From Rhodothermales bacterium (lineage in GTDB: Bacteria; Bacteroidota; Rhodothermia; Rhodothermales; Bin80): 64,000 nucleotides of DNA. Positions 10,382-48,081 of this stretch are shown one piece after another. Numbering within the stretch: position 1 is the stretch's first letter; each line of letters starts with the position of its first letter. The stretch covers positions 2,504-66,503 of the forward strand of contig JAJECE010000077.1 in NCBI GenBank assembly GCA_022822185.1, in the 5' to 3' direction. The notes under the pieces were generated by a model that saw nothing but the letters and a program-made list of their open reading frames with translations, had not been told where the DNA came from and did no database searches. The translations under genes and the position numbers were made by a program.

Positions 10382-10568
10382 CGAAGAGAGTTTGCTACGA
10401 CATGCTCCCGTATACTCATTCGAATCCCTTCTGCTCCTTCCACGATACGGCTGCCAGCACTCCCTAAAGATCCCTGTGTACGGCTAGCCTGATCCAGGAA
10501 CCGGAGACGAAATCTAAAAACTTCAGATCTGCCGTCCTCTTTTTCTGCGCTGGCCGGATTTTCTATCC

Positions 10569-10605
10569 AAAAAAAATGCCGGCAGAAGCAGACTTCCTGA
10601 CCAGC
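10569..10605 (-). terminator. Strong intrinsic terminator with no annotated gene to terminate
   Basis: The minus strand reads GCUGG-U-CAGGAAG-UCUG-CUUCUG-CCGGC-A-UUUUUUUU. Stem segments are GCUGG/CCGGC (one G-U pair) and CAG(G)AAG/CUUCUG, with a 4-nt loop and a U8 tract at 10576..10569. It lies 188 nt upstream of the ribH ATG. Confidence 0.55.
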
Positions 10606-10870
10606 GCGGCAATCCTGTCAGCATGTCAGACGCTTTGCACCAAGATGCACCACAGGCAAAACCACCCCACATACCTTTACATGAATGCATCCGGTCGTTG
10701 AAGACGAACATCCCGACAGGGACATATACGCGTGGGCATACAATGGCTGATGTACGGGAGCAGATCTCCGGCGCATGGCCATCACGATCTTGATTCATTG
10801 TGAACAGGTGCATCTGGAACACTGGAGACATAATCCAGCCACTTTGATCTGATCAGTAACGAAACATGTC

Positions 10871-11096
10871 AGGATCTGCCCGTCTGGCAACCATGATTTA
10901 TTTTAAAATGGCGCTCAGACGGGGATCGCTCCTCTAACAGCCCGTGGATAAAGTATGATCAAAGAGTTAGACAACACAACTGCGTGTCGTAGATGGCCAA
11001 ACCATCTACTGTCTGCCCTTTTTGAAAATCTAAAGGGCGAAAAACCTCTCTTCATGGCCATTTTGAGTAGTCTAATCCCGAAAAATCAACCCAAAA
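10871..11096 (+). repeat. Conserved non-coding element, copy A (core AATGGCG-N5-ACGGGGATCGC)
   Basis: Contains GGATCTGCCCGTCTGG, AATGGCG (10907..10913), ACGGGGATCGC (10919..10929), CCCGTGGATAAA (10941..10952) and TGATCAAAGA (10956..10965). It also holds two local hairpins: GTAGATGG-ccaaa-CCATCTAC (10989..11009) and GCCCTTT-N10-AAAGGGC (11015..11038). Related to the copies at 21966..22030 and 33316..33719. Confidence 0.5.
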
Positions 11097-11400
11097 GCGT
11101 TACTCAGATTTTTCTGGACTTTATCCACAGGCTGCTAAGACGGGTATGGCTTTGGTCTCCTTCTGCCATCCTGGTTTCAGGAAAGGATGCGCCGGTTTTT
11201 TCTGCATTCTGACGATACACGATTCATGCCTGACTCCAGTTGTGTAATCTCGCCAACTTTGATAAGGAGACACATCACACGTCGGGGAAATTTTTCACTC
11301 ATGCACAGATTGTATTGGAATGATCAGCGGAGCATAGCGTTGAATATACTCAAGTACGTATTGAGTAAAGCAGGATGTGGTGGATTTCCTGCCATGAAAC

Positions 11401-18831: not shown

Positions 18832-20574
18832 TCAGAATCCGACACGGCTTAGCAATCCCGACTGCATTTCACCGTCAAATTGCAGCATATAGACATAAAC
18901 CCCTGGGGGCAGGTGGGCTCCATGAAACTGTACAGACATACTTCCAGCCTGAATCGGTCCCTGATAGACGGTTCCAACTTCCCGTCCAAGTACATCAATG
19001 ACTATCAGTCGGGCATGGGAGACGGGTTCGGCTGCCTCAATGGTGAAATGAACGACACCCTGAAACGGATTCGGGTAAGGCATATGTACGGTCAGATGAC
19101 GGGGAACAGGAATTTCTTCCGCGGACCGGTTGACTGCCATTGCGCTCATGATTGCGGCATCCGCATTCACCAATCCCCAACCATAATCGTTGTCCGGAGT
19201 ACTGGACTGACTGGCGGTGGAGGTCAATACCTGCCAGACATCCTTCGGCCCGAGGCTGGGATTCGCCTGAAGAATCTGAGTCACGATTCCCGCGACCATT
19301 GGAGCAGAAAACGATGTTCCTCCCCCCTGGTGGCCATAGTGTTCGATTCGCTCCGCATGAGACACCCTAAATCCCTGTGCAGAGACATCAGGTTTAATTC
19401 GATCATCCGCCGTGGGCCCACGGCTGCTGAACCCGGCAATGAAATGATCTCTCAGCGGAGAGCAGACAAAACTGAAAAAGATGTCTTCAGGACAAACTGC
19501 GCCCACGGCAATCACCGAGTCACCATCTGCCGGCGTGCTGAGAGTTTGCCTTCCAGGTCCCTCATTTCCTGCACTGTTGACGGGAACCACTCCGCGACTT
19601 GCAGCAGCATCCATCGCAATGGTCGTAAGTCCGGTGTCCCCGTCCAGGTCACTTTTAATATAGCTTCGCTGACCGCCATCAAAATCAAAATATCCCAGCG
19701 AAGCCGTAATCACATCTACTCCTTCGGACTCCATCCACTCCACTGCGGCCACAAAGTTGTCTTCTTCAATGTTACGCTCATAGGGAGCACACTCCGTCGC
19801 CGCCGCGTAAATAGTTGCGCCATGTCCAGGACCAATGAGTCGCCCCTCGTGATAGCCGACGGCAATGGAGGCGACATCCATTCCGTGGGGATGTTCGCTA
19901 CGGCATGGCTGCGATGAATCCCTGTTAGTAAAATCCCGGAATTCAATCAGGCGACCATCGTCAGTTATATGACGCAATGAGCGATGACTGAAGGGACCCA
20001 GCCCACCGTCACTAAAATGGGTATCAATAAAGCCCAGGATTACCCCGGTCCCGTTAATACCACGCTCAAGCGGTGGAATTGCATTCACAATATCCAGTTG
20101 AGTACAGGACGGGCCATACACGCTTGACGGGCAGTTTGAAGAAATCCGTTCCGGAATCACAGGGGAGACCGGTATGTACGGCTGTCTGTCCGGTGCCAGA
20201 TGTGCGACAGGACGGATTTCTCGCACATAGGGAAGGGCGGCTATGTGCGCTGCCTCGTCTTCACTGAGCCGCGCCGTTACGGCATTCAGCCAACGACTTC
20301 TATGTTCAATCGTCACCCCCATTTCTTGAAGATCCGCCTCATAGACATACGAAATGGGCGCATCCTGCAGGGCAAACCTCGCCGAGAATTGCGACTCTCC
20401 TCTCAATGCACGGCGAGCGATGGCTTTATCCGCCAGATACCCCTCTTCCACCTGAGTATTTTTGCCGGAAGCATCCAACTTGTCCGTTAAGAAAATCCAG
20501 TATTTGGTTTCCTCCTGGGCAGTTGCAAAATGGGGGATGATCCACAGAAGAATGAAGAATAAGATGATACGCAT
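18832..20574 (-). CDS. S8 (subtilisin-family) serine peptidase with T9SS C-terminal sorting domain, paralog 1
   Basis: 580 aa. Signal peptide and a propeptide-like N-terminus (KYWIFLTDK...). Triad contexts are GFIDTHF (Asp), HPHGMDVASIAV (His) and GGGTSFSAPMVAGIV (Ser). The C-terminus is YPNPFQGVVHFTIEA...GVYVYMLQFDGEMQSGLLSRVGF. Confidence 0.9.
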   Translation of the reverse strand: MRIILFFILLWIIPHFATAQEETKYWIFLTDKLDASGKNTQVEEGYLADKAIARRALRGESQFSARFALQDAPISYVYEADLQEMGVTIEHRSRWLNAVTARLSEDEAAHIAALPYVREIRPVAHLAPDRQPYIPVSPVIPERISSNCPSSVYGPSCTQLDIVNAIPPLERGINGTGVILGFIDTHFSDGGLGPFSHRSLRHITDDGRLIEFRDFTNRDSSQPCRSEHPHGMDVASIAVGYHEGRLIGPGHGATIYAAATECAPYERNIEEDNFVAAVEWMESEGVDVITASLGYFDFDGGQRSYIKSDLDGDTGLTTIAMDAAASRGVVPVNSAGNEGPGRQTLSTPADGDSVIAVGAVCPEDIFFSFVCSPLRDHFIAGFSSRGPTADDRIKPDVSAQGFRVSHAERIEHYGHQGGGTSFSAPMVAGIVTQILQANPSLGPKDVWQVLTSTASQSSTPDNDYGWGLVNADAAIMSAMAVNRSAEEIPVPRHLTVHMPYPNPFQGVVHFTIEAAEPVSHARLIVIDVLGREVGTVYQGPIQAGSMSVQFHGAHLPPGVYVYMLQFDGEMQSGLLSRVGF

Positions 20575-21965: not shown

Positions 21966-22030
21966 GATCATGCCCGCATCTGACCACCGTCAGAATGGCG
22001 GGGAAACGGGGATCGCATTTGATCAAAGAA
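21966..22030 (+). repeat. Conserved non-coding element, copy C
   Basis: Contains GATCATGCCCGCATCTGACCACC (21966..21988), AATGGCG (21994..22000), ACGGGGATCGC (22006..22016) and TGATCAAAGA (22020..22029). The order matches copy A, and the core spacing is identical. Confidence 0.5.
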
Positions 22031-31194: not shown

Positions 31195-31246
31195 GACAAA
31201 ATGATTTTGTACGAGGGAGCATAATACTTTAAGCCGATCAAGGGGA

Positions 31247-32950
31247 ATGCGTCCAGTCCTTTTTCTTGTACTGCTGGTTTTCTGGCCTCACCTTGTGAAT
31301 GCACAGGAAACGGTCAAATACTGGATTTTCTTGACGGATAAATATGATGTCTCCGGTAAGCATACGCAGGTTGAAGACGATTACCTGTCCGGTCATGCAG
31401 TCGCTCGGCGCATCCAGCGGGGAGAGCCGGGTTTGGCTTCTGTGGTCGCATTGCAGGATGCGCCCATTTCCCCTGTCTATGAAGAAGACCTTTTTCGCAG
31501 AGGTTTCAAGATTGAACAGCAAAGTCGCTGGCTGAATGCCGTGACTGCGTGGCTTAGTGAAGACGATGTGCACCAGATCGCATCCCTTCCCTATGTGCGC
31601 GAAATCCGCCCCGTTGCACACATCTTTCCTGATATACAACCACTGATTCCCGTATCGCCTGTGATCCCCGAACGAGTGTCTTCCAACTGCCCGTCAAGCC
31701 GATTTGGCCCCTCCTGTACCCAGTTGGATGTAGTGAATGCAATTCCGCCGATTGAGCGGGATATCAATGGGAGAGGGGTAATCCTGGGATTCATTGATAA
31801 CAAATTTAGTGCGGACTCTGCCGCCCCCTTCAGTCACAGATCACTGCGACATATTCTTGATGACGGTCGACTCGGTGAATTTCGGGATTTCACGAACATG
31901 GATTCATCGCAGATATGTTCCTATTCATCTTCCCATGGAATGGCGGTTGCATCAATAGCAGTTGGATATTATGAGGGTATCCTCATTGGCCCTGGATACG
32001 GTGCCACAATTTATGCTGCTGCGACCGAATGTAGTTCCTATGAGCGCAATATTGAAGAAGACAATTTTGTTGCCGCGGTGGAGTGGATGGAAGCCAGAGG
32101 AGTCGATGTGATCACCGCCTCATTGGGCTATCTTGGGTTTGATGACGGCCAGCGCAGTTACACCCGGCATGATCTGGACGGTAACACCGGACTTACCACC
32201 ATTGCCATGGATGCCGCTGCCAGTCGTGGCGTAATTCCAATCAACAGTGCAGGCAATAGCGGTTTCCGCGGTCCTCAAACCATCACCATGCCTGCGGACG
32301 GGCACTCAGTGATTGCGGTTGGTGGTATTTGGCCGGATGGACAGATTTTCGACCGCAGCAGCCGGGGGCCGACGGCAGATGGCAGAATCAAGCCGGATGT
32401 CACTGCACAGGGTGTCGCAGTCGATTTTGCTTCGGGAATGGATGGCTATGAGAGGATGTCGGGTACCTCACTGGCTGCTCCGATGGTGGCGGGAATCGTC
32501 ACCCAGATTCTTCAGGTGAATCGCCATCTTAAGCCGAGAGAGGTCTGGAATCTATTAACCACGACCGCCAGCCGCTCAAACGCTCCTAACAACGACTATG
32601 GTTGGGGGATTGTCAATGCGGACGCAGCGATCATGAGCGCAGTGGCACTGAGACGCTCCGAAGAAGCCTTTCCCGTTCCCGACAACCTGATCCTGCATGC
32701 ACCTTATCCGAACCCGTTTCGGGATATCGTGTATTTCACGATTGAAGCAGCGGAACCCGTTTCTTATGCTCAACTCACGATTTTTGATGTATTAGGACGA
32801 GAGGCTGCCATTGTACACCAAGGCACACTTCAAACGGGAGGACTATCAATTCAATTTGACGGCTCAGACCTGCCCCTAGGGATTTACACCTATGCACTGG
32901 AGCATGGGGGAAGGACACAGTCGGGTATGTTAATACGTCTGGACTATTAG
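31247..32950 (+). CDS. S8 serine peptidase with T9SS C-terminal sorting domain, paralog 2
   Basis: 567 aa, colinear with 18832..20574 (many identical blocks, e.g. ERNIEEDNFVAAVEWME, LTTIAMDAAASRGV, APMVAGIVTQILQ). The C-terminus is YPNPFRDIVYFTIEA...GIYTYALEHGGRTQSGMLIRLDY. Confidence 0.9.
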   Translation: MRPVLFLVLLVFWPHLVNAQETVKYWIFLTDKYDVSGKHTQVEDDYLSGHAVARRIQRGEPGLASVVALQDAPISPVYEEDLFRRGFKIEQQSRWLNAVTAWLSEDDVHQIASLPYVREIRPVAHIFPDIQPLIPVSPVIPERVSSNCPSSRFGPSCTQLDVVNAIPPIERDINGRGVILGFIDNKFSADSAAPFSHRSLRHILDDGRLGEFRDFTNMDSSQICSYSSSHGMAVASIAVGYYEGILIGPGYGATIYAAATECSSYERNIEEDNFVAAVEWMEARGVDVITASLGYLGFDDGQRSYTRHDLDGNTGLTTIAMDAAASRGVIPINSAGNSGFRGPQTITMPADGHSVIAVGGIWPDGQIFDRSSRGPTADGRIKPDVTAQGVAVDFASGMDGYERMSGTSLAAPMVAGIVTQILQVNRHLKPREVWNLLTTTASRSNAPNNDYGWGIVNADAAIMSAVALRRSEEAFPVPDNLILHAPYPNPFRDIVYFTIEAAEPVSYAQLTIFDVLGREAAIVHQGTLQTGGLSIQFDGSDLPLGIYTYALEHGGRTQSGMLIRLDY

Positions 32951-33049
32951 GATTGAAAGTCATCAGACATCCACCATATGTCTCAACACCACGCGGTGAT
33001 GCCTTCATGGGGCAGATTGAAGTGACCGGGTCTGCTTATTCCTGCAAAT

Positions 33050-33268
33050 ATGAGGGAACATAATGTTTCAAGCCGACCGAGGGGAATGCGTACAGTCTTT
33101 TTTCTTGTACTGCTGGTTTTCTGGCCTCACCTTGTGAACGCACAGGAAACAGTCAAATACTGGATTTCCTTAACGGATAAATATGAGTTCTCCAGTAAGC
33201 ATACGCAGGTTGAAGACGACCACCTGTCCGGTCATGCGGTCGCTCGGCGCATCCAGTGGGGGGACTAG
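33050..33268 (+). pseudogene. Truncated duplicate of the S8 peptidase promoter-proximal region and first ~60 codons
   Basis: 33050..33262 aligns without gaps to 31211..31423 (offset 1839), with about 20 mismatches in ~213 positions by hand count. The homologous ATG is at 33086. Homology ends at about 33263 and the frame hits TAG at 33266..33268. Confidence 0.75.
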
Positions 33269-33315: not shown

Positions 33316-33719
33316 AAAATGGCTAGTTCCGCATGAAACAAGGGGTACATGGGGATCGCTACATTCCCGTGACCTGCGAAGTAGATGCGTTGGAACATAA
33401 GGCAGACGATCTTGGCACTGAAGTGAACCGTAACTGTGAACCGGTTGTCGACAGCACGGGAATGATCTTCCATCTGACCGATACATCTTGCCTTGAGATG
33501 CGGGTCAGACTACTCCAGAAGACTTCGCCAAAGGAAAACAGACTATCTGCCCGTGGATAAATTATGACCCTTGAATTAGACAGTGCAACTACTTATCGCA
33601 GATGGCCGATCCGCCTATTTTTCGCTCTTCGGGATATTCGTGAGCACAAAAATTTCACTCCTGTGGATATTTCGAGGGGTGGAATCCTGAAAAATAAATT
33701 CGAGAAGTGTCGATTAAGC
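33316..33719 (+). repeat. Conserved non-coding element, copy B (with 184-nt internal insertion/duplication)
   Basis: AAAATGGC (33316..33323) and GGGGATCGCT (33351..33360), then CCCGTG (33366..33371). A second CCCGTG at 33550..33555 is followed by sequence colinear with copy A at a constant offset of 22609: about 99/156 identical with no gaps, and 52/70 in the first 70 nt (hand count). Confidence 0.5.
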
Positions 33720-33885
33720 TTTTACGAACCTTACCCACAGACTGCAAAGCCCCTATCCAGAACAGAGTCATAGCGAAAAATTCGGGAGGATGCCCATATC
33801 TCCCCTTTTCGTGTAACCCTTGCTTTGGCAAAAGCTGGAACAATATTCTTGCTGGATTCATGTCGTTATTTTTCCAAGAGTATAC

Positions 33886-34464
33886 CTATCCCTGGGCGGA
33901 TACAGATGAGATGGCGGGCTGGGTGATTAAGGGGCGGTTCGCGGCCAGAATATCTTCGTTCACCTCAATTCCCTCGGTTCTGAGATACCCTATAATTCTC
34001 TGTACTTGTCCATTCAGGACATACATTGCACGAGCCAGTTCAGCAATTTGCTCATTCTGATCAGCTTGTCCATCCTCGATCCGTCTGAATGCAGCAGCAA
34101 CTTCCGCCTTAAACTGATTGAGTGCTTCAGTGAATCTAATTTCCAGTTGTTTAAGTGCTTCGGTTTGTCTGGTGTCTTGTTGTTTAAACCCTTCAGTAAA
34201 CCTGACTTCCAGTTGATTGAGTCCTTCAGTAAATCTGGCCTCCAGTTGATTGAGCCCTTCAGTAAATCTGACCTCCTGTTGATTGAATAGTTTGATTACT
34301 TCTGTTTTGAACTGATTGAGTGCTTCAGTTTGTCTGGCCTCGCTTCGTTCTAGGTTACGGTCAATTCTTCGTGTGAAAATTGAGATCACGGTAACCACCG
34401 TTCCAAGAATCAGAAAAAGCAAGGATGCCACGGCGATGAAAAGCGTGAGGGTTGATACAGTCAT
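33886..34464 (-). CDS. N-terminally membrane-anchored protein with seven 11-residue (hendecad) repeats
   Basis: 192 aa. TM helix TLTLFIAVASLLFLILGTVVTVISIF, then RQTEALNQFKT/EVIKLFNQQEV/RFTEGLNQLEA/RFTEGLNQLEV/RFTEGFKQQDT/RQTEALKQLEI/RFTEALNQFKA. No family recognised. Confidence 0.75.
   Translation of the reverse strand: MTVSTLTLFIAVASLLFLILGTVVTVISIFTRRIDRNLERSEARQTEALNQFKTEVIKLFNQQEVRFTEGLNQLEARFTEGLNQLEVRFTEGFKQQDTRQTEALKQLEIRFTEALNQFKAEVAAAFRRIEDGQADQNEQIAELARAMYVLNGQVQRIIGYLRTEGIEVNEDILAANRPLITQPAISSVSAQG
34105..34335 (-). repeat. 7 x 33-bp tandem coding repeat
   Basis: Plus-strand units such as cagttgattgagtccttcagtaaatctggcctc and cagttgattgagcccttcagtaaatctgacctc. The region corresponds to residues R44-A120 of the 192-aa protein. 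Confidence 0.85.
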
Positions 34465-35911: not shown

Positions 35912-38900
35912 TTATCTGATGGGAAAGCCCTCAACCTTGAATAGGAGCGGACTATCGTTGGATCGTGTGGCAATGATCTGATACGAATATCCGTTGCTGA
36001 TCAAACGAAACTGGCGAACTTCGCCCGGAGCACGAAACCCGCTGCGGGCTGTTGTATCCATCTCTCCACTTTCTGTGAAGTGGATGACCTCCCCCCACCC
36101 CGCATTCAAGGGGCCAAAGGCATCCGATGCGCTAGACAGATTCCCCGCGACAAGTAATTCAATGTTCCGTCCCCGTTGGACGGGTTGGATGGCCATGACC
36201 GGGCTCCACTGGACTTCACCGGGCATAGCTTCTGCGATAAAACGCTTCCCGCCGTGATTCCAGAATATAGTAGAATGAAGCGTCTGGAGGACTTCTGTGG
36301 GCTGGATATCCTCCCCAAATAAATCCGTCACGGATAAATCCCGGTAGGCGCTGTAAGAGGTGATTTTTGTTGAAAGTGTTGGCAACTGCTGAAGCAGCGC
36401 GTCACGGGAAGACCATGTATACCAGTCTCCATTCTCCCATTGCGCAATCACCGGATCAATCCGCCCATTCTGATCAAAATCTCTCGCAAAGAGCGCCAAA
36501 GGGATCGTAAAGGGGCTATTCAGTCCAAGATTCCCCGCCACCAAGTCATCAAACCCATCTCCATTCAAGTCCAGTACCACCAGGCTTTGCCACAGGCCAA
36601 TAGAGTTTGAGAGCCCCAGCGAGTCGGTTTGCTCAACGAACTTGGTCCCACGGTTCTCGAAAATCGTGACCGGCATCCATTCCCCAACCAGAATAAGATC
36701 CGGGAGAGGATCCCCTATCAGATCTGCCCAGACCGCCCCGGTTACATGTCCGATGTGTTGCAGCGAAGGGGAATGGCTTGCGGTTACATCATGAAAATAC
36801 CCCGCCCCGTCATTCATGAGCAGGCTGCTTGTTCCGGCTTCGCCATAGCGTTCCGGGGGCGTGTCGCTTCCCACAAAAATGTCCCAATCCCCGTCAAGGT
36901 CAATATCCGCTCCGGTCACTGCGGTTCCATTGGTATAAAGGGGTGGCAGTCGGGTGGAATCCGCATAAAATTTCCCGCTCCCCAAGTTGATGTACAGTTG
37001 ATCCTGATGCAGTTCAGCGGGCCCAATCCATCCGCCATTTGCAACATACAGATCAGGATCACCATCTTGATCCGCATCAAAAAAGAGGGCCGCAGCGGAC
37101 TCACTGGCTTTGTTGGAATCCGGGAACGGAACCTGCTGAAAACTGCCATCTGAACGTTGGACATAAAGTGCGTCCGGCTGGCCGCGCGCACCTCCAAAAT
37201 AAATGTCATCCAGTTGATCCGCATTCACATCTGCGACCGCCAGTGCCGCTGCCCGTGTACTGCGCCAGTAAGGTAAAAGTGGAAGAATTTCAAAATCCCA
37301 CACCTCATCTTCCGTATGTATGAATCCAATCCCGTGATCCTTGGATCTAGACACCTTGACCTGCTTCTCTAAAAGGACGGGGAGCTCCATTTTTGGGACA
37401 GGTGGCATTCGGCTATCCGATTCGTCTACGACTAGACGGGTCCCGGCGGCGGTTACTCCTGTATGGGAGCGAAAGCCATCCGGCCAGATGACTACAACCG
37501 AGTCCGCACTCAAAGCATCTCCGATCCCAAAATTTAAAACATGATCGACCGAGGACTGAAATCCGCGGGATGGAAATTGCTCCTGCATCCTAGACATACC
37601 GGACAACCATACGCTGACTCGGGCACCGATCGCAGAAGTATTTCGGCCGGCACCGCGGAGAACAACAGAGATGTAATTACTGGCAGATTCATTACGATAG
37701 ATCAATGCGGGAGCATTCAATGCATTGACAACCAGATCCAGATCTCCATCCAGATCCAGATCCCCGTATGCAGCCCCGTTTCCGATGACATAATCGGCAG
37801 TTCCCCAGACATGACTGACATCTTCAAACCGCAGATCGATTCCTCCCCTGAAGGCGTAATTAGGAACAATGGCCGGCGGCATCTTCTGCATAATTTCGGA
37901 CTCCTGAGCGGGAGATCCCTCATGCAGGATGCGCTGAATCTCTGGTGTCGCAACATACTCAATGTAGTCCAGATCGTTGGGCCGGCCGGGGATCCCGTTC
38001 GTAATATACAGATCCTTCCAACCATCCCCGTCAAAATCTCCTGCCAATGGCGCCCAGGACCAGTCGGTTGCGTGAACCCCGGAAAAGGATGCGATCTCGC
38101 TGAAGAAAGGGATCCCTTTATACGTCATGCCCCGGTGCAGCTGAAGCGTGTTTCGGGCAACCTGCCGGCCATATCCAAAATCAGCCAATACTTTCATCCG
38201 AATATCTGCATTTGCATTCCCGGCGGTACGCTGAGTTGCCAGATCCGGCGGTAGCATATCCAGCGCAACAATATCCGGCAGACCATCATTATTCAGGTCA
38301 GCAATATCAACCCCCATAGTGGAGCGGCTGGTTTTTCCGGTTGTCTGCCATAGAGATTCCTGAAACATACCCTGCCCGGTATTCAGATACAGGTAGTCAT
38401 CTTCATGGAAGTCGTTGCCAACATAGAGATCCGGCCATCCATCCTGATTCAGATCACTGACCGCAAGCCCCAGTCCATATCCTAATGCACTGCTGTAGAT
38501 ACCCACTTCCGCCGCAACGCTTTCAAAATACCCATCCTCCTGGCGATAAAACTTATCCCCGACTCTCGACGCATCCACCATCCTTCTCCAGGAAGGAACA
38601 TAGGATTCCCGTGAGTGAAGTGCATGGTTGAGCAGATACAGATCCAGGTCTCCATCCAGATCGTAATCCAGCCAGGCGGTGTGCGTAGAGAGCCCCTCAA
38701 AGTCCAGCCCGTAGCGCCGACTCTCTTCCTGGAAGGTTCCATCCTGCCGGTTAATATACAATTGATTATGCCCCGTCTTAGTGAGATGATGGACACGGCA
38801 TACATAAATGTCAAGCCAGCCGTCTCCATTTACATCCGCCATGCTGACCCCGGTAGACCAGGTATTTCCCTCCGTAACGATGCCCGCCACCATCGTTACA

Positions 38901-39190
38901 TCCTCAAAACGAAAATCTCCCCGATTCAGATAGAGACGATCTTTGACCTGATTGCCCGTCAAAAACAGATCTGGCAGATGATCATTATTCACATCCCCGA
39001 TCGCCACACCGCCCCCGTCATAGAAGTACAGATAATCAATGATATTAAAATCATCTTCCGGCACCAGTGTGTTATGGAAGTCAACCCCGGTCCGGGCTTT
39101 GCTTAGCAGAGTGAACAACCTGTCCTTAGACTCCGGTCCGCTCTGGCAGCCCAGGAAGAGAATCAGAAGCAGAACATAACTAATCCGCAT
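35912..39190 (-). CDS. FG-GAP/VCBS-repeat + ASPIC/UnbV lipoprotein (CRTAC1-family type), ~1090 aa
   Basis: The tracked ORF runs to 39247. The lipoprotein-type start MRISYVLLLILFLGCQ is at 39190. Has an N-terminus shared with the two upstream paralogs (LFTLL...GVDFHN.L...D.FNI..YLYFYDGGGVAIGDVNND.LPDLFLTGNQ), many DxDxDG-type motifs (DYDLDGDLDLYL, GDLDLDGDLDLVV) and an ASPIC/UnbV-like GFQSSVDHVLNFGIG. Confidence 0.9.
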   Translation of the reverse strand: MRISYVLLLILFLGCQSGPESKDRLFTLLSKARTGVDFHNTLVPEDDFNIIDYLYFYDGGGVAIGDVNNDHLPDLFLTGNQVKDRLYLNRGDFRFEDVTMVAGIVTEGNTWSTGVSMADVNGDGWLDIYVCRVHHLTKTGHNQLYINRQDGTFQEESRRYGLDFEGLSTHTAWLDYDLDGDLDLYLLNHALHSRESYVPSWRRMVDASRVGDKFYRQEDGYFESVAAEVGIYSSALGYGLGLAVSDLNQDGWPDLYVGNDFHEDDYLYLNTGQGMFQESLWQTTGKTSRSTMGVDIADLNNDGLPDIVALDMLPPDLATQRTAGNANADIRMKVLADFGYGRQVARNTLQLHRGMTYKGIPFFSEIASFSGVHATDWSWAPLAGDFDGDGWKDLYITNGIPGRPNDLDYIEYVATPEIQRILHEGSPAQESEIMQKMPPAIVPNYAFRGGIDLRFEDVSHVWGTADYVIGNGAAYGDLDLDGDLDLVVNALNAPALIYRNESASNYISVVLRGAGRNTSAIGARVSVWLSGMSRMQEQFPSRGFQSSVDHVLNFGIGDALSADSVVVIWPDGFRSHTGVTAAGTRLVVDESDSRMPPVPKMELPVLLEKQVKVSRSKDHGIGFIHTEDEVWDFEILPLLPYWRSTRAAALAVADVNADQLDDIYFGGARGQPDALYVQRSDGSFQQVPFPDSNKASESAAALFFDADQDGDPDLYVANGGWIGPAELHQDQLYINLGSGKFYADSTRLPPLYTNGTAVTGADIDLDGDWDIFVGSDTPPERYGEAGTSSLLMNDGAGYFHDVTASHSPSLQHIGHVTGAVWADLIGDPLPDLILVGEWMPVTIFENRGTKFVEQTDSLGLSNSIGLWQSLVVLDLNGDGFDDLVAGNLGLNSPFTIPLALFARDFDQNGRIDPVIAQWENGDWYTWSSRDALLQQLPTLSTKITSYSAYRDLSVTDLFGEDIQPTEVLQTLHSTIFWNHGGKRFIAEAMPGEVQWSPVMAIQPVQRGRNIELLVAGNLSSASDAFGPLNAGWGEVIHFTESGEMDTTARSGFRAPGEVRQFRLISNGYSYQIIATRSNDSPLLFKVEGFPIR

Positions 39191-42100
39191 AGGTGAAGAT
39201 GCGGAGCGTATCGTTGTTGCGGGCAACCAAAACATGTGTTTTGCCATTCACCTCAATCGTCAGGATTTGCCGCACCTGCCCCTCCACAAAAAAACCGGAT
39301 GCATGCCAGTCCAGCGGTTCCATGGAGGGAACCAAAAACGCAGTCCCGTAACTGGCATCATACCGCCCCGCCTCCGGCTTTACCTCGTATAGATTCCCTC
39401 CAGACAGCACGATCTGCCCGTTTACAGCCGGAAGGGCAGCCATCCCATATACGGGAGATAGCTGCATCTCCCAGGGAGCCGGACGGAGTGTAAAATTCCC
39501 GGTGCCATCATTGATTCCAACCATACTCCGGAGCTCATTCACATGCAGATGTGTGGTCTGGCTTCGTTCCTCTTCCGTGAAAATGTCCTGAATCGTAGCA
39601 TCTGCGTAGGATGCATAAGTCGGGAACTTCCGAACCAGATGAGGGATCTGCGCAACCAGATCATGGCGTAAATGCCAGGGCCGTTGCAAGCCGTTGATGG
39701 TTCTGGCAAAAATCTGCTCAATGCTCCCATTACGATCAAAGTCGCCAACCCACATATCTACAGGCGGCCTGAACCTGGAGTTCATTCCATGATTCCCTGC
39801 AATGAAATCCAGGTCGCCATCCGCATCCATATCCATGACCAGAATGGATTGCCACCATCCAGCCGTATTTTCCAGACCTGCATCCACAGGTACAAAGGCA
39901 CCCTGATCATTCTTCAGTACCGTCAACGGCATCCATTCTCCGCCCAGGAGAAGATCCGGATGATTGTCTCCGTCAAAATCTGCACAGGCGGCATCGGTGA
40001 CAAGCCCAATGGATTCAAGGCTAGGTGCGAGGCGAGCGGTGGCATCGGTGAATGCTCCGGTTCCATCGTTGAGTAGCAACTGACTGCTGATGGGCAGTCC
40101 ATAGGCAAACGGCTGCAACCGGCCACCAAGAAAGAGATCCAAGTCTCCATCCGAATCAAAATCACGGGAGCAGACCGTCGAAGTGGGCGCGAATCCGCGT
40201 GGACGGAGTCCGATCAATGACGCTCCACGCGAAAGCGCACCGGTGCCATCGTTGAGATAGAGCCTGTCCACCAGCGCAGAACTGCTGCTTGGGAGTTCAC
40301 TGCTGCCACTTGCCACGAACAGGTCCTGATCCCCATCCATATCCATATCCAGCCACTCGCAGTCCACATCCTCCGAGATAGCATCCTCTTCTAATACGGA
40401 TTGGGGGGCCGGCGTAAAGGATCCATGGCCGGTGTGCAGAAATACGCTCCCGGGTTGATTGCGTGCTCCACCGAGATAGAGATCTTCCTGACCATCTCCG
40501 TTCGCATCTCCTTTACACATGGCAGGACCTTCGGTGGAGCGCATATGAAAGAGGAGGGGCTGCTGATCAAAATCACTGAACGTGTTTTCCCGGTGGCGCC
40601 ATCCGAGCCCAAGGGATTCCGCATCAACGGGAACTAGAAGCGGATCCGGCCTGGCGGGATTGAAATGGGACGAGAATGGAGAGGGAGAGGCCGGAGACTC
40701 CTGGATCATGAGTCGCTGATTGGTGGGGATGTTTTCGCGGAGCGTCACTGCACCGCTCGGCCAGTGGATGACCAGAGAGTCGAGCATCTCTGTATCCGGA
40801 CCAAGCCCGATATGCAGAACCGGATCCACACTGCTTTGGAAGCCCCGGACAGGCTGCTGTTCAAGATACCAGAGACGGGCATCTTGCCAGGCGCTGATCT
40901 GCGCACCCACCCCCTGCGTATTCGGTGGCACGCCCTTCAGTACAATCTGGAGCCATCGCCGGTCAGAATAATGATCCACCGCCCGATTCCGAAACAGCAT
41001 CGGATCCTCCCCGATATTATTGACCAGAAGGTCCAGATCTCCATCCAGATCCAGGTCCGCATAGGCACTGCCATTCGAGAACCCGGGGGCCGAAAGCCCC
41101 CAGTCCTCCGTTACATCTGTAAAGGATTGCGCAGGACGGCCGGCAAACATGTGGTTGGAGATAGGCTGAGTGGGGATCATCTCAATCAGGGTTTTCCAGT
41201 CCACATAATTTTCGCTGGTCAGAAGATTTTTGGTATCCTCATCCCGGATCGCCTCCAGATAGTCTGCATTGGTAAGATCCCGATAGATGCCGTTCGCCAC
41301 AAAGATATCCTGACGACCATCATGATCATAGTCGGCAATCAGTGCGCCCCAACTCCAGTCACTTGCATGTACACGCAGCATTCTTCCTGATTCAGAAAAA
41401 CGGATTCCGGCATTCGGGTCCCTGCCCCGGTTCATCTGCAGCGTATTGCGGGTGAACTGGTGATGATAGTCGTCACGTACGTAGGCTTTATAGCGTTCCC
41501 AGCTGTCAAATGCCGACACGGTCTTGATTCGGTAGTCGGTTGCCGGCAGCATATCGGTGACAAAAATGTCCAGATAACCATCTCCATTGAGATCTGCCAT
41601 ATCGGCTCCCATCGCTGCCGCGCTCACGCTGGTGACACTTTCCCGCAGCGACTCAATGAAGGTCCCATCCTGATTATTGAGATAGAGATAGTCGTATTCA
41701 AAAAAATCATTGGAAATATAGAGATCCGGCCACCCATCCCGATTCACATCCCCGACCGAAGCGCCAAGACCAAAACCAATCTCACTTTGATAGATCCCGG
41801 AACCTGCGGTAACATCGGTAAACTGTGCATCCGGCGCATCATTACGAAATAGCCGATCCCCTCCCGCCAGGTGCGGCACATGACGGGTATTGACTTCAAG
41901 GTTGAAGTCCACAATGCTCCGAAATGAGTTATTGACCAGAAACATATCCACATCTCCGTCCCTGTCGTAATCCAGAAAAGTCGCATGGGTGGAAAGTCCG
42001 GCATCATCCAGTCCGTACAGTTCTCCCTGTTCCAGAAATGTTCCGTCTCCCTGATTGATATACAGTTCGTTACGCCGGTCATCCCCTTCTACGATCCCTG

Positions 42101-42488
42101 AATTACAGACATAGACATCTAGAAGGCCATCCCCGTTGATATCCGCCATGCTGACCCCCGTACTCCAGGCACGATCTCCCAGGATCCCCGCTTCTTCGGA
42201 TATATCCCGAAACTGAAAATCCCCTTCATTCAGATAGAGTCGGTTCGGAGTCTGATTGCCGGTCAGAAATACATCGGGCAGATGATCCTGATTGATATCG
42301 CCAATAGCCACACCGCCTCCGTTGTAGAAATTGCGATACCGGTACACATTGAATGCATCCTCATACCGAAGCGTATTCTCGAAATGAATCCCCGCTTCTT
42401 TCGCGTCAATTTGCTCAAAAAGCGGTCCCTTCTCTGTGGTACAGGCCCCCAGAAAACCAGCCAACAGGATGGACACGAATCTATTCAT
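39180..42488 (-). CDS. FG-GAP/VCBS-repeat + ASPIC/UnbV lipoprotein (CRTAC1-family type), ~1100 aa
   Basis: The tracked ORF runs to 42509. The lipoprotein-type start MNRFVSILLAGFLGAC is at 42488. Architecture matches 35912..39190 (YRNFYNGGGVAIGDINQDHLPDVFLTGNQ, DLDLDGDLDLLV, RGFQSSVDPVLHIGLG). Confidence 0.9.
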   Translation of the reverse strand: MNRFVSILLAGFLGACTTEKGPLFEQIDAKEAGIHFENTLRYEDAFNVYRYRNFYNGGGVAIGDINQDHLPDVFLTGNQTPNRLYLNEGDFQFRDISEEAGILGDRAWSTGVSMADINGDGLLDVYVCNSGIVEGDDRRNELYINQGDGTFLEQGELYGLDDAGLSTHATFLDYDRDGDVDMFLVNNSFRSIVDFNLEVNTRHVPHLAGGDRLFRNDAPDAQFTDVTAGSGIYQSEIGFGLGASVGDVNRDGWPDLYISNDFFEYDYLYLNNQDGTFIESLRESVTSVSAAAMGADMADLNGDGYLDIFVTDMLPATDYRIKTVSAFDSWERYKAYVRDDYHHQFTRNTLQMNRGRDPNAGIRFSESGRMLRVHASDWSWGALIADYDHDGRQDIFVANGIYRDLTNADYLEAIRDEDTKNLLTSENYVDWKTLIEMIPTQPISNHMFAGRPAQSFTDVTEDWGLSAPGFSNGSAYADLDLDGDLDLLVNNIGEDPMLFRNRAVDHYSDRRWLQIVLKGVPPNTQGVGAQISAWQDARLWYLEQQPVRGFQSSVDPVLHIGLGPDTEMLDSLVIHWPSGAVTLRENIPTNQRLMIQESPASPSPFSSHFNPARPDPLLVPVDAESLGLGWRHRENTFSDFDQQPLLFHMRSTEGPAMCKGDANGDGQEDLYLGGARNQPGSVFLHTGHGSFTPAPQSVLEEDAISEDVDCEWLDMDMDGDQDLFVASGSSELPSSSSALVDRLYLNDGTGALSRGASLIGLRPRGFAPTSTVCSRDFDSDGDLDLFLGGRLQPFAYGLPISSQLLLNDGTGAFTDATARLAPSLESIGLVTDAACADFDGDNHPDLLLGGEWMPLTVLKNDQGAFVPVDAGLENTAGWWQSILVMDMDADGDLDFIAGNHGMNSRFRPPVDMWVGDFDRNGSIEQIFARTINGLQRPWHLRHDLVAQIPHLVRKFPTYASYADATIQDIFTEEERSQTTHLHVNELRSMVGINDGTGNFTLRPAPWEMQLSPVYGMAALPAVNGQIVLSGGNLYEVKPEAGRYDASYGTAFLVPSMEPLDWHASGFFVEGQVRQILTIEVNGKTHVLVARNNDTLRIFTYAD

Positions 42489-43062
42489 TCTCCTGAGCCG
42501 GGATGGCATGCAGATCGGTCATGTTTACCAGCACCTCGCTGTCCGAACCACGCTGGATCGTAATCTGCCGGTTCGCGTCAATCTTTACAAATTGATGGGT
42601 GGGCCCAATGAGCGGCAGTGAAATCTGCTGGTGCAGAAATCCCTCACCGTACCACACTTCCATAAGATCCCGAACATCGAAAAACAGACTGTCTGACCAG
42701 AGTTGCCGGTTCCAGGGGGCCCAGGCATCATAGAAAATACGAACACGCATCTGAACGACCCGATCCTCCTTGAAATCAGGGTAGTACAGCATGGTGGCCG
42801 CATGGGGAAGTTGATCGGTGAGTTTGTACTGGACATTCATGTTGCTGGGACCATGCGTGACGAGCTCCCGCCGGTTCAGCGCCCAACTGGAGTCATAGAA
42901 TGCCTGGCGAGACATCCCCAACTCATAATTGAGAAAGAGCGTACGAACGGTGTCCGTGCGGGCAGCTTCACGCATCAGCATGGCTTCATATTCCGAGGGC
43001 GGCTCACACGCTGCGGTGATAAGAATCGGAAAAAATAATCCTGCAAGGTGCAGTCTGTTCAT
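42481..43062 (-). CDS. Small lipoprotein of unknown function embedded in the FG-GAP/ASPIC operon
   Basis: The tracked ORF runs to 43251 but overlaps the upstream gene. The internal start MNRLHLAGLFFPILITAAC (lipobox) at 43062 forms an ATGA stop/start overlap with the upstream gene (GAG GTT CAA TGA / ATG AAC AGA). 193 aa, no family recognised. Confidence 0.7.
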   Translation of the reverse strand: MNRLHLAGLFFPILITAACEPPSEYEAMLMREAARTDTVRTLFLNYELGMSRQAFYDSSWALNRRELVTHGPSNMNVQYKLTDQLPHAATMLYYPDFKEDRVVQMRVRIFYDAWAPWNRQLWSDSLFFDVRDLMEVWYGEGFLHQQISLPLIGPTHQFVKIDANRQITIQRGSDSEVLVNMTDLHAIPAQENE

Positions 43063-44831
43063 TGAACCTCTAAGACAGTCAGGCGGCGATTTTTCTCGAT
43101 ATCGGTCAAGCGTTGGTGCTTGCCGTGCGGCCACTGGACAACGACCGAGTCTAATGCTCCAGTGAAGCCAAAGTGCAGTATCGGATCCACACTGGACTGA
43201 AATCCGCGTTGCAGATATTGCTCGCTGTACCATTGTTGTCCATCTGCCCAAACGCTGACCTGTGAACCGACTCCAAAAGGATTGGGCGTTTTTCCACGTA
43301 ATTCAACCTGGAGCCAATGACGTTCGGGGAAGTGCTTGATCACCCGGTTGCGGTAGACGAATACAGGCATATTCACATTATTGACGACAAGATCCAGGTC
43401 CCCGTCATTATCCAGATCCCCATAGGCCGCCCCGTTCGAAAAGCCGGGAGTTGCGAGCCCCCACGGCTGACTTACGTCCGCGAAGCGGAGATCGGGACTG
43501 CCCGCAAACATGTGATTGGCAAGGGCATGGGAGGGGACGGTTTCCAGAAGTTTGAGGATCGGCTGTTCATGCGCAAGAAAAAATGTCCGAATGGAATCCG
43601 TATTGGATGCCTGCACAATGAAGTCCTGATCAAGAAGATCCTTAAAGATGCCGTTCGGCACAAAAATATCCCGATGTCCATCCAGATCAAAATCCGCGAT
43701 CAACCCGCCCCAACTCCAATCCGTACTTTCAATTCCTGCAATGCGGGACACCTCACTGAATCGTAGATGTCCGCCGGGCAAAGGGCCACGGTTGAGTTGC
43801 AGGGTATTTCTGGTACTCTGGTGGTGGTACCCGTCATCTACGCTTCTTAGATACTCTGACCAGGATGGAAAGGCAATGCGGGACTGATAACGCCAGAGCA
43901 GATCAGGAAGCATGTCCGAGACAAAGATGTCCGACCAACCATCCCCGTTATAATCGGCAATGTCCCCTCCCATCGAACTGAGACTCATGGTCTGGACAAC
44001 TTCGGTCCCCGCGTCTGTGAATGTCCCGTTCCGGTTCAGATAGAGGTAATCACGCTCAAAGAAATCATTGGACACATAGAGATCTGTCCATCCGTCCCGG
44101 TTGAGGTCGGCGGCGGATACACCCAGTCCAAATCCAATCTGGCTGCTGTAGATGCCTGAAACGGCGGTCACATCAACAAACTGTCCGCCATCGTTTCGCA
44201 AAAGGCGGTTCCCGCCGTCCGGATCTGGAGTCTGCCGGAGATTCGGAGCCGGTTGCAAGTCATCCAGTGAGCGCACCGGGTTACTCAGAACATAGCTGTC
44301 CAGGTCCCCATCTCCATCGTAGTCAAAGAAGGATGCGTGAATACCTAGGGCTTCGAATGCGAGACCATATTCATGGGCCATTTCCACAAAAGTCCCGTCA
44401 TGTTGATTCACAAAAAGCTCATTATGACGTCTGCCTCCCCCCGGCGGGCCGGATTTGCTCAGGTACAGATCCAGCCACCCATCCCCGTTAATGTCAACCA
44501 TACTGACTCCCGTCGTCCAGATACCTGCCGAATACAATCCTGCCTGCTCTGTGACATCCTCAAAACGAAAGTCACCAAGATTCAGATAGAGCCGGTTGGA
44601 TACCTGATTGCCGGTCAGGAAAATATCTGCCAGCCCGTCATTATTCATATCCCCAATTCCCACGCCACCGCCATTATAGAAGTTGCGAAAGACATAGGTA
44701 TTGAGTGTTTCTGCAGGAATCAAAGTATTGGCAAATAAAATCCCGGTTTGATCGGGGCGCATGCGCTCAAAGAGCGGAGCATTCCGTGTGCACGCTCCCA
44801 GTATCAATCCCAGGAACAGGACCATCGGCAT
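43059..44831 (-). CDS. FG-GAP/VCBS-repeat + ASPIC/UnbV lipoprotein, short (~590 aa) form
   Basis: The tracked ORF runs to 44954. The lipoprotein-type start MPMVLFLGLILGAC is at 44831. Colinear with the N-terminal halves of the two ~1100-aa paralogs (FRNFYNGGGVGIGDMNNDGLADIFLTGNQ, GDLDNDGDLDLVV, RGFQSSVDPILHFGF). Confidence 0.85.
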   Translation of the reverse strand: MPMVLFLGLILGACTRNAPLFERMRPDQTGILFANTLIPAETLNTYVFRNFYNGGGVGIGDMNNDGLADIFLTGNQVSNRLYLNLGDFRFEDVTEQAGLYSAGIWTTGVSMVDINGDGWLDLYLSKSGPPGGGRRHNELFVNQHDGTFVEMAHEYGLAFEALGIHASFFDYDGDGDLDSYVLSNPVRSLDDLQPAPNLRQTPDPDGGNRLLRNDGGQFVDVTAVSGIYSSQIGFGLGVSAADLNRDGWTDLYVSNDFFERDYLYLNRNGTFTDAGTEVVQTMSLSSMGGDIADYNGDGWSDIFVSDMLPDLLWRYQSRIAFPSWSEYLRSVDDGYHHQSTRNTLQLNRGPLPGGHLRFSEVSRIAGIESTDWSWGGLIADFDLDGHRDIFVPNGIFKDLLDQDFIVQASNTDSIRTFFLAHEQPILKLLETVPSHALANHMFAGSPDLRFADVSQPWGLATPGFSNGAAYGDLDNDGDLDLVVNNVNMPVFVYRNRVIKHFPERHWLQVELRGKTPNPFGVGSQVSVWADGQQWYSEQYLQRGFQSSVDPILHFGFTGALDSVVVQWPHGKHQRLTDIEKNRRLTVLEVQ

Positions 44832-45762
44832 CCCTGCCGTTAAGCTAACACGGAAGATCCTGACCGGAGACCATGCATTCTGCCGGACACGATAGAGTAC
44901 GGGGATCCCTCTCCACCCGGCACCCATTGCTGTAGGGCAGGAAAACGGTCTCATTGTAAGATGTCTCTGAGATTTTTGCCAGATCGCACCCCCATCACGG
45001 GCCGCGTGAGACAGAAACTGAACGAGGCAGATCGTAGCGGTAACCTACGCATGTTCAGGGATGCGATGCAGCACATAACGGGAGGTAGAGTCATCAAATG
45101 GCACGGTGCTTTTAGGATCAGGGTCTCCCTTTGTTTCCCCCCTTGATTTGCCGTTCACTGGATTAAGTCCGTTCCCGTTCCTTCTCTCCAAGCCAGATAT
45201 GCGGATCCCCCGCACCCGGCTTGCTTAAAAAGATGGGCATGGAATGCATTTCCCTGATTCCGTTAAAACTCCAAAATTCGTACAGAACGTTTGCTTCCGG
45301 GGTGACGTATCCAAGGATTTCCGGGTGCCATGCCGGGGCTACGTTGCTGCAGACAGCAAGCCGGTAGACGGGAAAAGGGAGATCATTCGGGACACGCAAC
45401 CCGGCACCGCAGGTACTGGACATCTTCGTTGAGTTTCCCCGATGACAGGTCAGGGGAATCCACGGAGCACCCGATGCCGGCTGGATACATTTTACGTTGT
45501 AAAGCGCATGGCCATTTTCCCGTCAAACTAGCCTTCCACTCAACGCTCTCCTCAGCCCTGATTATGAATCTTCCCTCCGCCCAGTAAGTCAACCGAACCA
45601 GAGGAAATACGGATACACCACACTCCATGCTCCCGTCAGAAAGCCGGTTTCGCATATTTGGGATGTCACGAACTGGAGAGTGCTACAGCTGGGCAGGACA
45701 TCTTGGACACAGACCTCCCCTACAGATGGGATCGGATTGCATGCCATTATGCCATTCCCCGA

Positions 45763-45845: not shown

Positions 45846-47759
45846 CTATTTGACAAGAACCATATGCCTCGCCTGCCGGAACTGCCCCCATTCCAGCGTA
45901 TAGATGTACTGTCCACTAGCAACCGCCAGCCCGCGATCACTCAGCCCGTTCCATTCAACGATGTGCCTGCCCTGAGCATAAAATTCGCCATCGATGAGCG
46001 TCCGCACCAAACGTCCAGTGATGTCATAAATTCGGACACTGACCCGCTTATCCAGCGGCAATGTAAAGGAGAAACTTGTGGATGGGTTGAATGGATTCGG
46101 ATAATTGGAATGCAGTTCGAAGTCCGTTGGAAGAATGATCCGGTCATTCGAAATACTGGTTGAAAGTCCATCGCCTGACAGCACCTTCAGGAATACGCGG
46201 TCTGGATGGGGGGTGGCCGATACGACACTTCTTACATAGGTGGAATCCGCGGGATTGAACACTTCGTTATAGACATAGACACTGTCCGGAACCCCGGAAA
46301 TCGACATGGCGACCTCATTTTGACCATCTCCGTCCACATCCCCGAGATAGGCGAATTTTCCTGCCCGAATACCAGGTGCCCCTAACAGATCATCCTTGTA
46401 GGTCGTCGCAAGGTATGTGGTCATAACCCCTGCACTGTCCCGGTTCACGGTATCAAAGATCGTTTCCGTCGGCATCGGAAATTCCACCTCGCGCACCTTG
46501 TAACTAGTGGATGCTTCTACATCCCCTTTCCCGTCATAATCTACAATTCTCACCAATTTTGGCGCTTTGCCATCCGCAAAATCCTTCGGGGTATAGGCAG
46601 CTCCGGTTCCAATCAATTCCGGGGATCCATCGTTATCAATATCCCCGGCAGTCAATCCCCATACGGATACGCCGGCAACCAGCGGGTAAACTGCGTTTTC
46701 TTCACCAATTTCCAAAGGATTCTCTCCTTCTTCATAGTTGATAATGGCAAGGTCTCCGGCAAAATTATCCACGCAATACACCTCGTCATCCCCATTCATG
46801 TCTATATCGACCACCGCACATCCAAAGTACGCAACGTCGTCAAATGGTGATGCCTGATAGAACGCTTTCTCGCCGGATGGACTCACATAGGTATTCGGCC
46901 CGGTCACATCGATATTCGTGAAATTCAGATTGTTCCAGCTGTGCAGTGCAATCTCGTGCGTCCCATCTCCGTCAAAGTCAGCCGCAACAATTCCAAAGGG
47001 GCTTCCGCCTCCCCGGTCTACTCCATCAATCTCATCCGGTCTGGATGTCCATCGTGCCTCCTGGGTAAAGGTGGCCAGGGGAGTTCCGATGCCCTCTGCG
47101 GTGACCACATACCAGCTGTCAAAAATATTTTCCCGTCCGTTGTTTCCGAACATGAGTTCATCAATATTATCCCCGTCTACATCGGCGACTATGATTTGCT
47201 CGGTAAGGAACCGGTCTGGAACCGCCCCATCAAAATCCCATAAACTGGGCAGCGGATTGAACGTGTTATCGCCCGTTGCTTCCATGACTCCGAGTCTTGG
47301 ACCGGGAATCACTGCTTTCACCGGATTTTCATCTGCGATACCATACCCGATAAAGAGGTAGATCTCGCCGAATTTATCCCCGTCCAGATCGCCTACCCCG
47401 ACACCGCGGGCATTCTCAAGGGTGCCCGTATCAATGGCCAGAGATGGAGAAGAATAAATTAACTCCCATGTATCGACACCTGCACTTTCAAGTACATGTA
47501 CGCGTCCGGCACCCGAGTAATCCGAGAGAACGATCTCCATTTTCCCGTCACCATCCAGATCAAACGGTCCCGTAATGCTGGGAGCCCCCGCCTGAAGTCC
47601 CGGAGCATAAGCCGGAAGATCCGGGATCCCCAGAAGCGGATGCATTGCAAACCCCTCGGTTGCACTCGGGACCCACTCAAAATCCACCTTCTGTGCAGTC
47701 GCAGGTGCGATCAGAAAGAAAAGTACTGGAAGAAAAACACAGTAAAAGCATTTGTTCAT
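45846..47759 (-). CDS. FG-GAP/VCBS-repeat protein with T9SS C-terminal sorting domain
   Basis: The tracked ORF runs to 47897. The signal-peptide start MNKCFYCVFLPVLFFLIAPATAQ is at 47759. Repeated DxDGDG motifs (GPFDLDGDGKMEIV, VGDLDGDKFGEIY, ADVDGDNIDELM, AADFDGDGTHEI, VVDIDMNGDDEV, AGDIDNDGSPEL, LGDVDGDGQNEV). The C-terminus is YPNPFNPSTSFSFTLP...GQYIYTLEWGQFRQARHMVLVK. Confidence 0.85.
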   Translation of the reverse strand: MNKCFYCVFLPVLFFLIAPATAQKVDFEWVPSATEGFAMHPLLGIPDLPAYAPGLQAGAPSITGPFDLDGDGKMEIVLSDYSGAGRVHVLESAGVDTWELIYSSPSLAIDTGTLENARGVGVGDLDGDKFGEIYLFIGYGIADENPVKAVIPGPRLGVMEATGDNTFNPLPSLWDFDGAVPDRFLTEQIIVADVDGDNIDELMFGNNGRENIFDSWYVVTAEGIGTPLATFTQEARWTSRPDEIDGVDRGGGSPFGIVAADFDGDGTHEIALHSWNNLNFTNIDVTGPNTYVSPSGEKAFYQASPFDDVAYFGCAVVDIDMNGDDEVYCVDNFAGDLAIINYEEGENPLEIGEENAVYPLVAGVSVWGLTAGDIDNDGSPELIGTGAAYTPKDFADGKAPKLVRIVDYDGKGDVEASTSYKVREVEFPMPTETIFDTVNRDSAGVMTTYLATTYKDDLLGAPGIRAGKFAYLGDVDGDGQNEVAMSISGVPDSVYVYNEVFNPADSTYVRSVVSATPHPDRVFLKVLSGDGLSTSISNDRIILPTDFELHSNYPNPFNPSTSFSFTLPLDKRVSVRIYDITGRLVRTLIDGEFYAQGRHIVEWNGLSDRGLAVASGQYIYTLEWGQFRQARHMVLVK

Positions 47760-47843
47760 TTGAAGCATGTGGTTAAGTTGATGTTTGACTTGGTTCTTTG
47801 TCTTTTCAGCAGGCCAGTGACACCGCAACTTGCCTGAATTAAC

Positions 47844-48081
47844 AAAAAAACGCATCTGTATACAAAGAAACGTAACATCCGTTTCAACTTCACACAATCT
47901 TCACACAATCCTTGAAAAAAACGCAGAAATTCCATTCTTTTCGATCCCAGAACGCACAAACCTACCCCTCTGTCCGTGTGTAAGCCGCATGCGCAGACCT
48001 CCGATTCATGCGGGACGCGAAAACGAATATCCCGATCTGGTCGCAAATACTTTCTGCGACCATCGCTTTCAAAAAAACGCA
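47844..48081 (+). promoter_or_regulatory. Three exact copies of AAAAAAACGCA in a divergent promoter region (candidate operator/regulatory motif)
   Basis: Exact 11-mers at 47844..47854, 47915..47925 and 48071..48081, between the FG-GAP/T9SS gene start (47759, -) and the sulfatase start (48293, +). A related AAAAACGCAGTT lies at 28591..28602 in the SusC/S9 divergent region. Function not established. Confidence 0.3.

Follow-up and report, generated by a model that had tools for sequence, protein, structure and literature searches.

A short inverted-repeat element with the features of a non-autonomous transposon in Rhodothermales genomes

The window, a stretch of 64,000 nucleotides from a Rhodothermales bacterium, contains two copies of a repeat that is very probably (about 93%) a non-autonomous DNA transposon (MITE) of 197-199 bp, bounded by 17-bp terminal inverted repeats (TIRs) and having no gene of its own. 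Its boundaries, inverted repeats, target-site duplication and multi-copy dispersal were observed, as were the absence of coding constraint and an empty site. The family is previously undescribed yet entirely conventional and, as far as the scans show, is restricted to a small group of uncultured Rhodothermales; a literature search found no papers on MITEs in this order. A first-pass annotation of the same DNA had described three related non-coding elements sharing a core motif, at sites A, B and C, and had offered a small-RNA family, a regulator or alternative-sigma target and relics of a miniature mobile element as explanations. The last of these is correct for A and B; it does not extend to the core or to site C, and the word relic does not suit copy A, given its perfect duplication and empty site. 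The three-member motif family is wrong.

Pairwise blastn of the 1-kb regions around the three sites gave a single significant similarity, between positions 10934-11139 at A and 33543-33749 at B (68% identity over 209 nt, E 2e-23). The two sites had been described as colinear, and they are so downstream of CCCGTGGATAAA, with other limits and of another nature than was supposed: the similarity starts approximately 5 nt past the core in A and approximately 185 nt past it in B, and on the right it exceeds the earlier limits by 38 nt (A) and 25 nt (B). The 184 nt taken for extra sequence in B are the unique flank of that copy, kept in its orthologues. The pairing of ACGGG with CCCGUG, reported for both sites, involves the first bases of the left TIR in A, while in B it draws on unrelated flanking sequence.

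Further copies were sought with a 19-base internal pattern in one genome per species, 185,579 species in total. The scan yielded 22 loci, of which 13 are in JAJEFL01 (Rhodothermales MAG p16x43bins.4), 7 in JAJECV01 (Rhodothermales MAG jk18xAbins.42) and 2 in unrelated taxa, the latter isolated matches being close to the chance expectation. Because an exact pattern was searched in fragmented MAGs, the counts are lower bounds (>=13 and >=7 copies). The 20 Rhodothermales loci were aligned together with A and B; in this 22-copy alignment the similarity begins abruptly at CAGCCCGTGG and ends equally at ...CCACAGGCTG, with unrelated flanks and genomic contexts on either side. The consensus is 199 bp long, full-length copies measure 192-199 bp, and the copies of the main family are 88-97% identical to the consensus. 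The 17-bp TIRs are the best conserved columns, and the element has no internal tandem repeats. About 200 bp in length, with 17-bp TIRs, a 4-bp duplication, no gene, 10-20 dispersed copies and both occupied and empty alleles, it is therefore identified as a MITE in the general sense of the term (PMC4596501).

Copy A occupies positions 10938-11134 (+ strand, 197 bp), as drawn from the 22-copy alignment; it is intact, 92% identical to the 199-bp consensus, and matches the family profile over model positions 1-199 (nhmmer, E 1.2e-61). Its left TIR, CAGCCCGTGGATAAAGT (10938-10954, +), is complementary at 16 of 17 positions to the right TIR, ACTTTATCCACAGGCTG (11118-11134, +). Copy B, at 33547-33744 (+ strand, 198 bp), is diverged, with 70% identity to the consensus (nhmmer, E 1e-51), degraded TIRs and a decayed flanking duplication (CTAT / CAAA). 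The profile finds exactly these two copies in the window. At site C it finds none even at E <=10, so that C, the supposed third member of the family, holds no copy of the element.

Repeats of other kinds also occur in the window. Its first 2960 nt consist of about ten tandem repeats of approximately 300 nt (60-85% identity) within a very large gene crossing the window start, and the same sequence in ERZ23491617 scaffold_985 (L002) encodes a 1761-aa fn3-repeat protein. Three FG-GAP / ASPIC-UnbV paralogues stand side by side at 35912-44954 (-), with extensive repeats both within and between the genes, and a fourth FG-GAP protein is encoded at 45846-47897.

Copy B has orthologues with the same flanks at L011 (JAJEFL010000053) and L019 (JAJECV010000061), and all three share an identity to the consensus of about 70%, degraded ends and a decayed duplication; copy B is an ancient, decaying insertion inherited by three related genomes. 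The main family has variants of its own. L007 (784-941) and L018 (753-909) carry a common 41-nt internal deletion at different loci, each with its own duplication, which indicates a mobile deletion subfamily. A copy at L024 (2734-2988) bears a 70-nt internal insertion, and another at L015 (2751-2960) an 11-nt internal duplication. Two contigs stop 137 nt inside the element, the kind of break that repeats usually cause in assemblies.

The surroundings of copy B are themselves rearranged. The first 60 codons of an S8 peptidase gene (31247-32950, +) and the region upstream of them are duplicated downstream of that gene with 90% identity (31210-31425 versus 33049-33264), and an inverted S8 paralogue, 77% identical, is located at 18832-20574 (-). 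In the MAG JAJEFL (L011, 5460-5760) an S9 peptidase gene is followed directly by the S8 N-terminal fragment; a full-length S8 gene is missing from between the two. The arrangement has the appearance of a gene duplication or insertion confined to one lineage. An interpretation of the B flank as a decayed S8 protease remnant was rejected, as the duplication covers the first 60 codons and nothing beyond. Immediately downstream of copy B, a 192-aa ORF (33886-34464, -) without a Pfam match contains tandem 33-nt (11-codon) repeats at 34100-34330.

The flanks of the element carry a duplicated target. Identical 4-bp flanks were found in 11 of the 17 complete copies of the main family (CTAG, CTAA, ATAG or CTAT), and 3 more match at three of four bases; the duplications are imperfect in several copies other than B. 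They have the form NTAN, mostly CTAG, and CTAG and CTAA together make up the majority. Changes at the first and fourth bases are matched on the two sides (ATAG/ATAG, CTAT/CTAT, CTAA/CTAA), which shows that the duplication is 4 bp long and not a TA dinucleotide. A TA-only duplication of the IS630 type was rejected on the same covariation and on the single CTAA present in the empty site.

The empty site was recognised in four close relatives, namely GCA_022823545.1, two ENA metagenome scaffolds and one Logan contig, which were reached through the 90%-identity cluster of the RibH protein encoded in the window. Across the ribH-mutS2 spacer they are 95.5-95.8% identical to the window. Where the relatives read GCTCCT CTAA GACAGG, the window reads GCTCCT CTAA [197 bp] CTAA GACGGG; compared with all four it carries a precise 201-bp insertion with a 4-bp target-site duplication, the two CTAA copies, read directly, lying at 10934-10937 on the left, where the relatives have a single CTAA, and at 11135-11138 on the right, as placed by the empty-site alignment. 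This is direct evidence of transposition in the lineage of the window, and copy A is an intact, recent insertion at a CTAA site of the ribH-mutS2 spacer.

Some further features of this spacer were recorded. Four of 22 window-specific substitutions in the approximately 850-nt spacer fall in a cluster in the 75 nt left of the insertion site, at 10866, 10908 and 10925-10926; the cluster could be due to chance, or the occupied allele may have recombined in from a more divergent strain. Scaffolds 985 and 708 of ERZ23491617 end and begin, respectively, at 10867-10921, just left of copy A, with a 55-bp exact overlap. Here the assembly graph branches, probably because alleles with and without the MITE, or differing at nearby SNPs, occur together. 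Without the MITE, the spacer (10382-10937 and 11139-11400) comprises 822 nt with no recognisable gene, its only ORF being an unsupported one of 102 aa (10523-10831, -), and a simple scan of it found no promoter-like or terminator-like sites.

By analogy with other elements of this kind, a transposase encoded elsewhere in the genome would bind both inverted repeats, and the bound element would be excised or copied and then inserted at a 4-bp NTAN site, CTAG being preferred, with the NTAN target becoming duplicated on both sides of it. A 4-bp duplication at YTAR / CTAG is the signature of IS5 (PMC5009759, PMC10379815). Since the present element combines a 4-bp duplication with a preference for (C/T)TA(A/G) or CTAG, its parent most likely belongs to the IS5 family, an assignment based on duplication length and motif only, and we infer mobilisation in trans by a DDE transposase with an IS5-like target preference. 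The ATAG and CTAT duplications, present in four copies, fall outside the strict YTAR motif.

Searches for the partner transposase covered several kinds of sequence. No transposase gene flanked by matching TIRs was found in the 64-kb window or in approximately 160 kb of the relatives' loci, and a 17-mer scan of viral contigs returned three unrelated coding matches and no partner; the plasmid collection searched yielded no match. Additional TIR matches in the relatives' loci were considered as a lead to a partner IS and set aside, as they fall within two genes, one for an S9 peptidase and one leuB-like. A transposase sharing the ATG-proximal N-terminal ORF of the element was likewise not found: a word-indexed search returned one small ORF, and an exhaustive phmmer search with the element ORF returned three small ORFs and two spurious repeat proteins.

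Since no partner with matching TIRs was found, a variant of the transposon reading was considered, according to which either an uncatalogued transposase moves the element or its conserved internal hairpins confer a host-level role, so that the insertion of copy A would be functionally relevant and not neutral. Such a role may, for example, be that of a transcript end or of a regulatory RNA upstream of mutS2, copy A being inserted 266 nt upstream of that gene. We consider this proposal, taken as a whole, improbable.

A still weaker case can be made for the repeat as a duplicated structured or regulatory RNA gene, in which the paired termini would form a closing helix and would not serve as transposase-binding ends. 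Copy A does fold much more stably than its shuffled counterparts (z = -6.9 and -5.7 on the two strands) into a 17-bp closing helix with two internal hairpins, but any element with inverted-repeat ends folds in this manner. Folding 15 copies together gives a weak consensus structure (-15 kcal/mol; covariation term, -1.65). The double changes are all contributed by one lineage, that of B, and in both B and L014 the decay of the terminal arms is uncompensated. An RNA gene would also leave the target-site duplications and the empty site unexplained. In Rfam, the whole window matches only tRNAs at the gathering threshold, and the best scores in the three regions, searched at E <=10, are far below it (E >=0.36), so that the suggested small-RNA family finds no match there. 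This explanation is very unlikely, and the MITE reading is retained.

The core motif, AATGGCG-N5-ACGGGGATCGC, calls for separate treatment, as it lies in the flanks and outside the element. At A (10907-10929, +) it belongs to host sequence 5-31 nt left of the insertion site, at C (21994-22016, +) it is ordinary DNA in the gap that separates tRNA-Leu from an orphan ORF, and the core-like segment at B (33316-33360, +) has a different spacing and is situated in the flank approximately 190 nt left of copy B. None of the three is part of the element. The strings themselves had been reported accurately, and several observations speak for a functional motif at three intergenic sites, whether a regulator or alternative-sigma site or an sRNA core. 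The window contains exactly three occurrences of the 9-mer GGGGATCGC (10921, 22008 and 33351), always on the + strand, between genes and with AATGGC upstream, and the blocks at A and C have identical spacing and agree at 19 of 23 positions.

These counts are nevertheless at chance level. Three occurrences of GGGGATCGC were reached in 13 of 100 dinucleotide shuffles, contrary to the enrichment that had been argued for it. The multi-block similarity claimed between A and C does not hold either: a gapped local alignment scored no better than shuffled sequences (248 of 500 reached the observed score), and blastn recovered the ungapped 19/23 block alone (E 0.056, for 1 kb searched against 1 kb). 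No similarity was shared between C and B in blastn of their 1-kb regions. Matches of at least 19/23 were counted in 6.5 kb of true intergenic DNA from which the MITE repeat had been removed. Shuffles gave 0.17 direct and 0.32 inverted matches per trial, so about 0.5 are expected per intergenic set; apart from trivial ones, A-C is the sole direct match to reach this level, and two inverted matches are equally strong.

The core is also poorly kept in related sequences. At A, all four relatives read ACTGGCGCTCAGACGGGGGCCGC (AAACTGGCGCTCAGACGGGGGCCGC), that is, ACTGGCG...GGGGGCCGC, differing at 3 of the 18 specified core bases, including two that form GGGGATCGC. The orthologues of C, which are about 94% identical, have either a spacer lengthened by an inserted nucleotide (L076) or AATGGTG together with TAATCAAAGA (L078); the core there varies like its surroundings. 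Those of B keep only GGGGATCGC, approximately 200 nt upstream, where it is conserved like the rest of that flank, and the remaining occurrence of this 9-mer in the relatives' loci is inside an ilvC-like gene. The core is absent upstream of all 18 other MITE copies. No recurrence of it in front of other genes was seen. In a metagenome scan, the full core pattern gave 42 scattered single matches in unrelated contigs, largely in coding sequence and none resembling A or C. About 17 of these 42 contigs (L031, L041, L043, L046, L047, L049, L051, L054, L055, L057, L060-L062, L066 and L068) share a stretch of approximately 140 nt in which a C-terminal-like gene end on the opposite strand is followed by a hairpin. 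A functional role for the core is thus hardly credible, and the core is a short stretch in which unrelated flanks happen to agree.

The least probable alternative, a family of small protein genes represented by ORFs 10955-11212 (85 aa) and 33564-33773 (69 aa), can point to a shared ATG 18 nt into the repeat, a frame held for about 48 codons and similar ORFs called as genes in other copies (P0001, P0076 and P0077), but it is dismissed by the even spread of A/B differences over codon positions (17/20/21), 4 synonymous against 32 non-synonymous codon changes, frame-shifting 1-nt indels in copies that are otherwise 90% identical, variable C-termini and lengths (61, 68, 69, 85 and 94 aa), and a DNA identity (68%) that exceeds the protein identity (33%). 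Pfam gave no match to the A and B ORFs. The sole homologue in the word-indexed search, P0001 (68 aa; L001, 5593-5799; Rhodothermales MAG GCA_022820435.1), is encoded by DNA approximately 90% identical to A, with a frame-shifting 1-nt indel and in an unrelated gene neighbourhood. A protein search against 1.84 billion representatives returned, besides spurious repeat proteins, only small ORFs called inside MITE copies. P0001, P0076 and P0077, unnamed proteins of 61-94 aa in public collections, are annotation artefacts.

The practical consequences of the MITE concern annotation, assembly and strain typing, including population genetics at the strain level. Public databases contain "hypothetical proteins" of 61-94 aa that gene callers produced from its copies, and contigs break at the element. 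The ribH-mutS2 insertion provides a presence/absence marker between otherwise 96%-identical lineages from the same sample series. Apart from this, the family is a routine one and a new mechanism is unsupported; a shared regulatory or RNA motif would have been the interesting part, and it is unsupported here.

Among known elements, MITEs related to IS630/Tc1-mariner, such as the Correia elements of Neisseria, are small and TIR-bounded, occupy TA-centred, CTAG-like sites and have CAG ends, all of which are seen in the present element. MITEs derived from IS630/Tc1-mariner duplicate TA alone, whereas the duplication found here is 4 bp long. The IS5 element of Escherichia coli is similar in its 4-bp duplication and its (C/T)TA(A/G) motif, CTAG being the classical form (PMC5009759, PMC10379815). 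However, IS5 is approximately 1.2 kb long and encodes a DDE transposase, while the present element is 197-199 bp long and has no gene. The start of its TIR, CAGCCCGTGG, also seems unlike the IS5 end. In Porphyromonas gingivalis, MITEs derived from IS5-family insertion sequences have inverted repeats that match those of ISPg1/3/4/9 (PMC4596501). Compared with them, the element of Rhodothermales has no internal tandem repeats, and its duplications have a regular 4-bp NTAN form, in contrast to the irregular ones of BrickBuilt. The likeness is one of anatomy: both are non-coding elements of about 200 bp with TIRs and a target-site duplication, present in approximately 10-20 copies per genome, and both occur within one broad bacterial group, whose members have a type IX secretion system.
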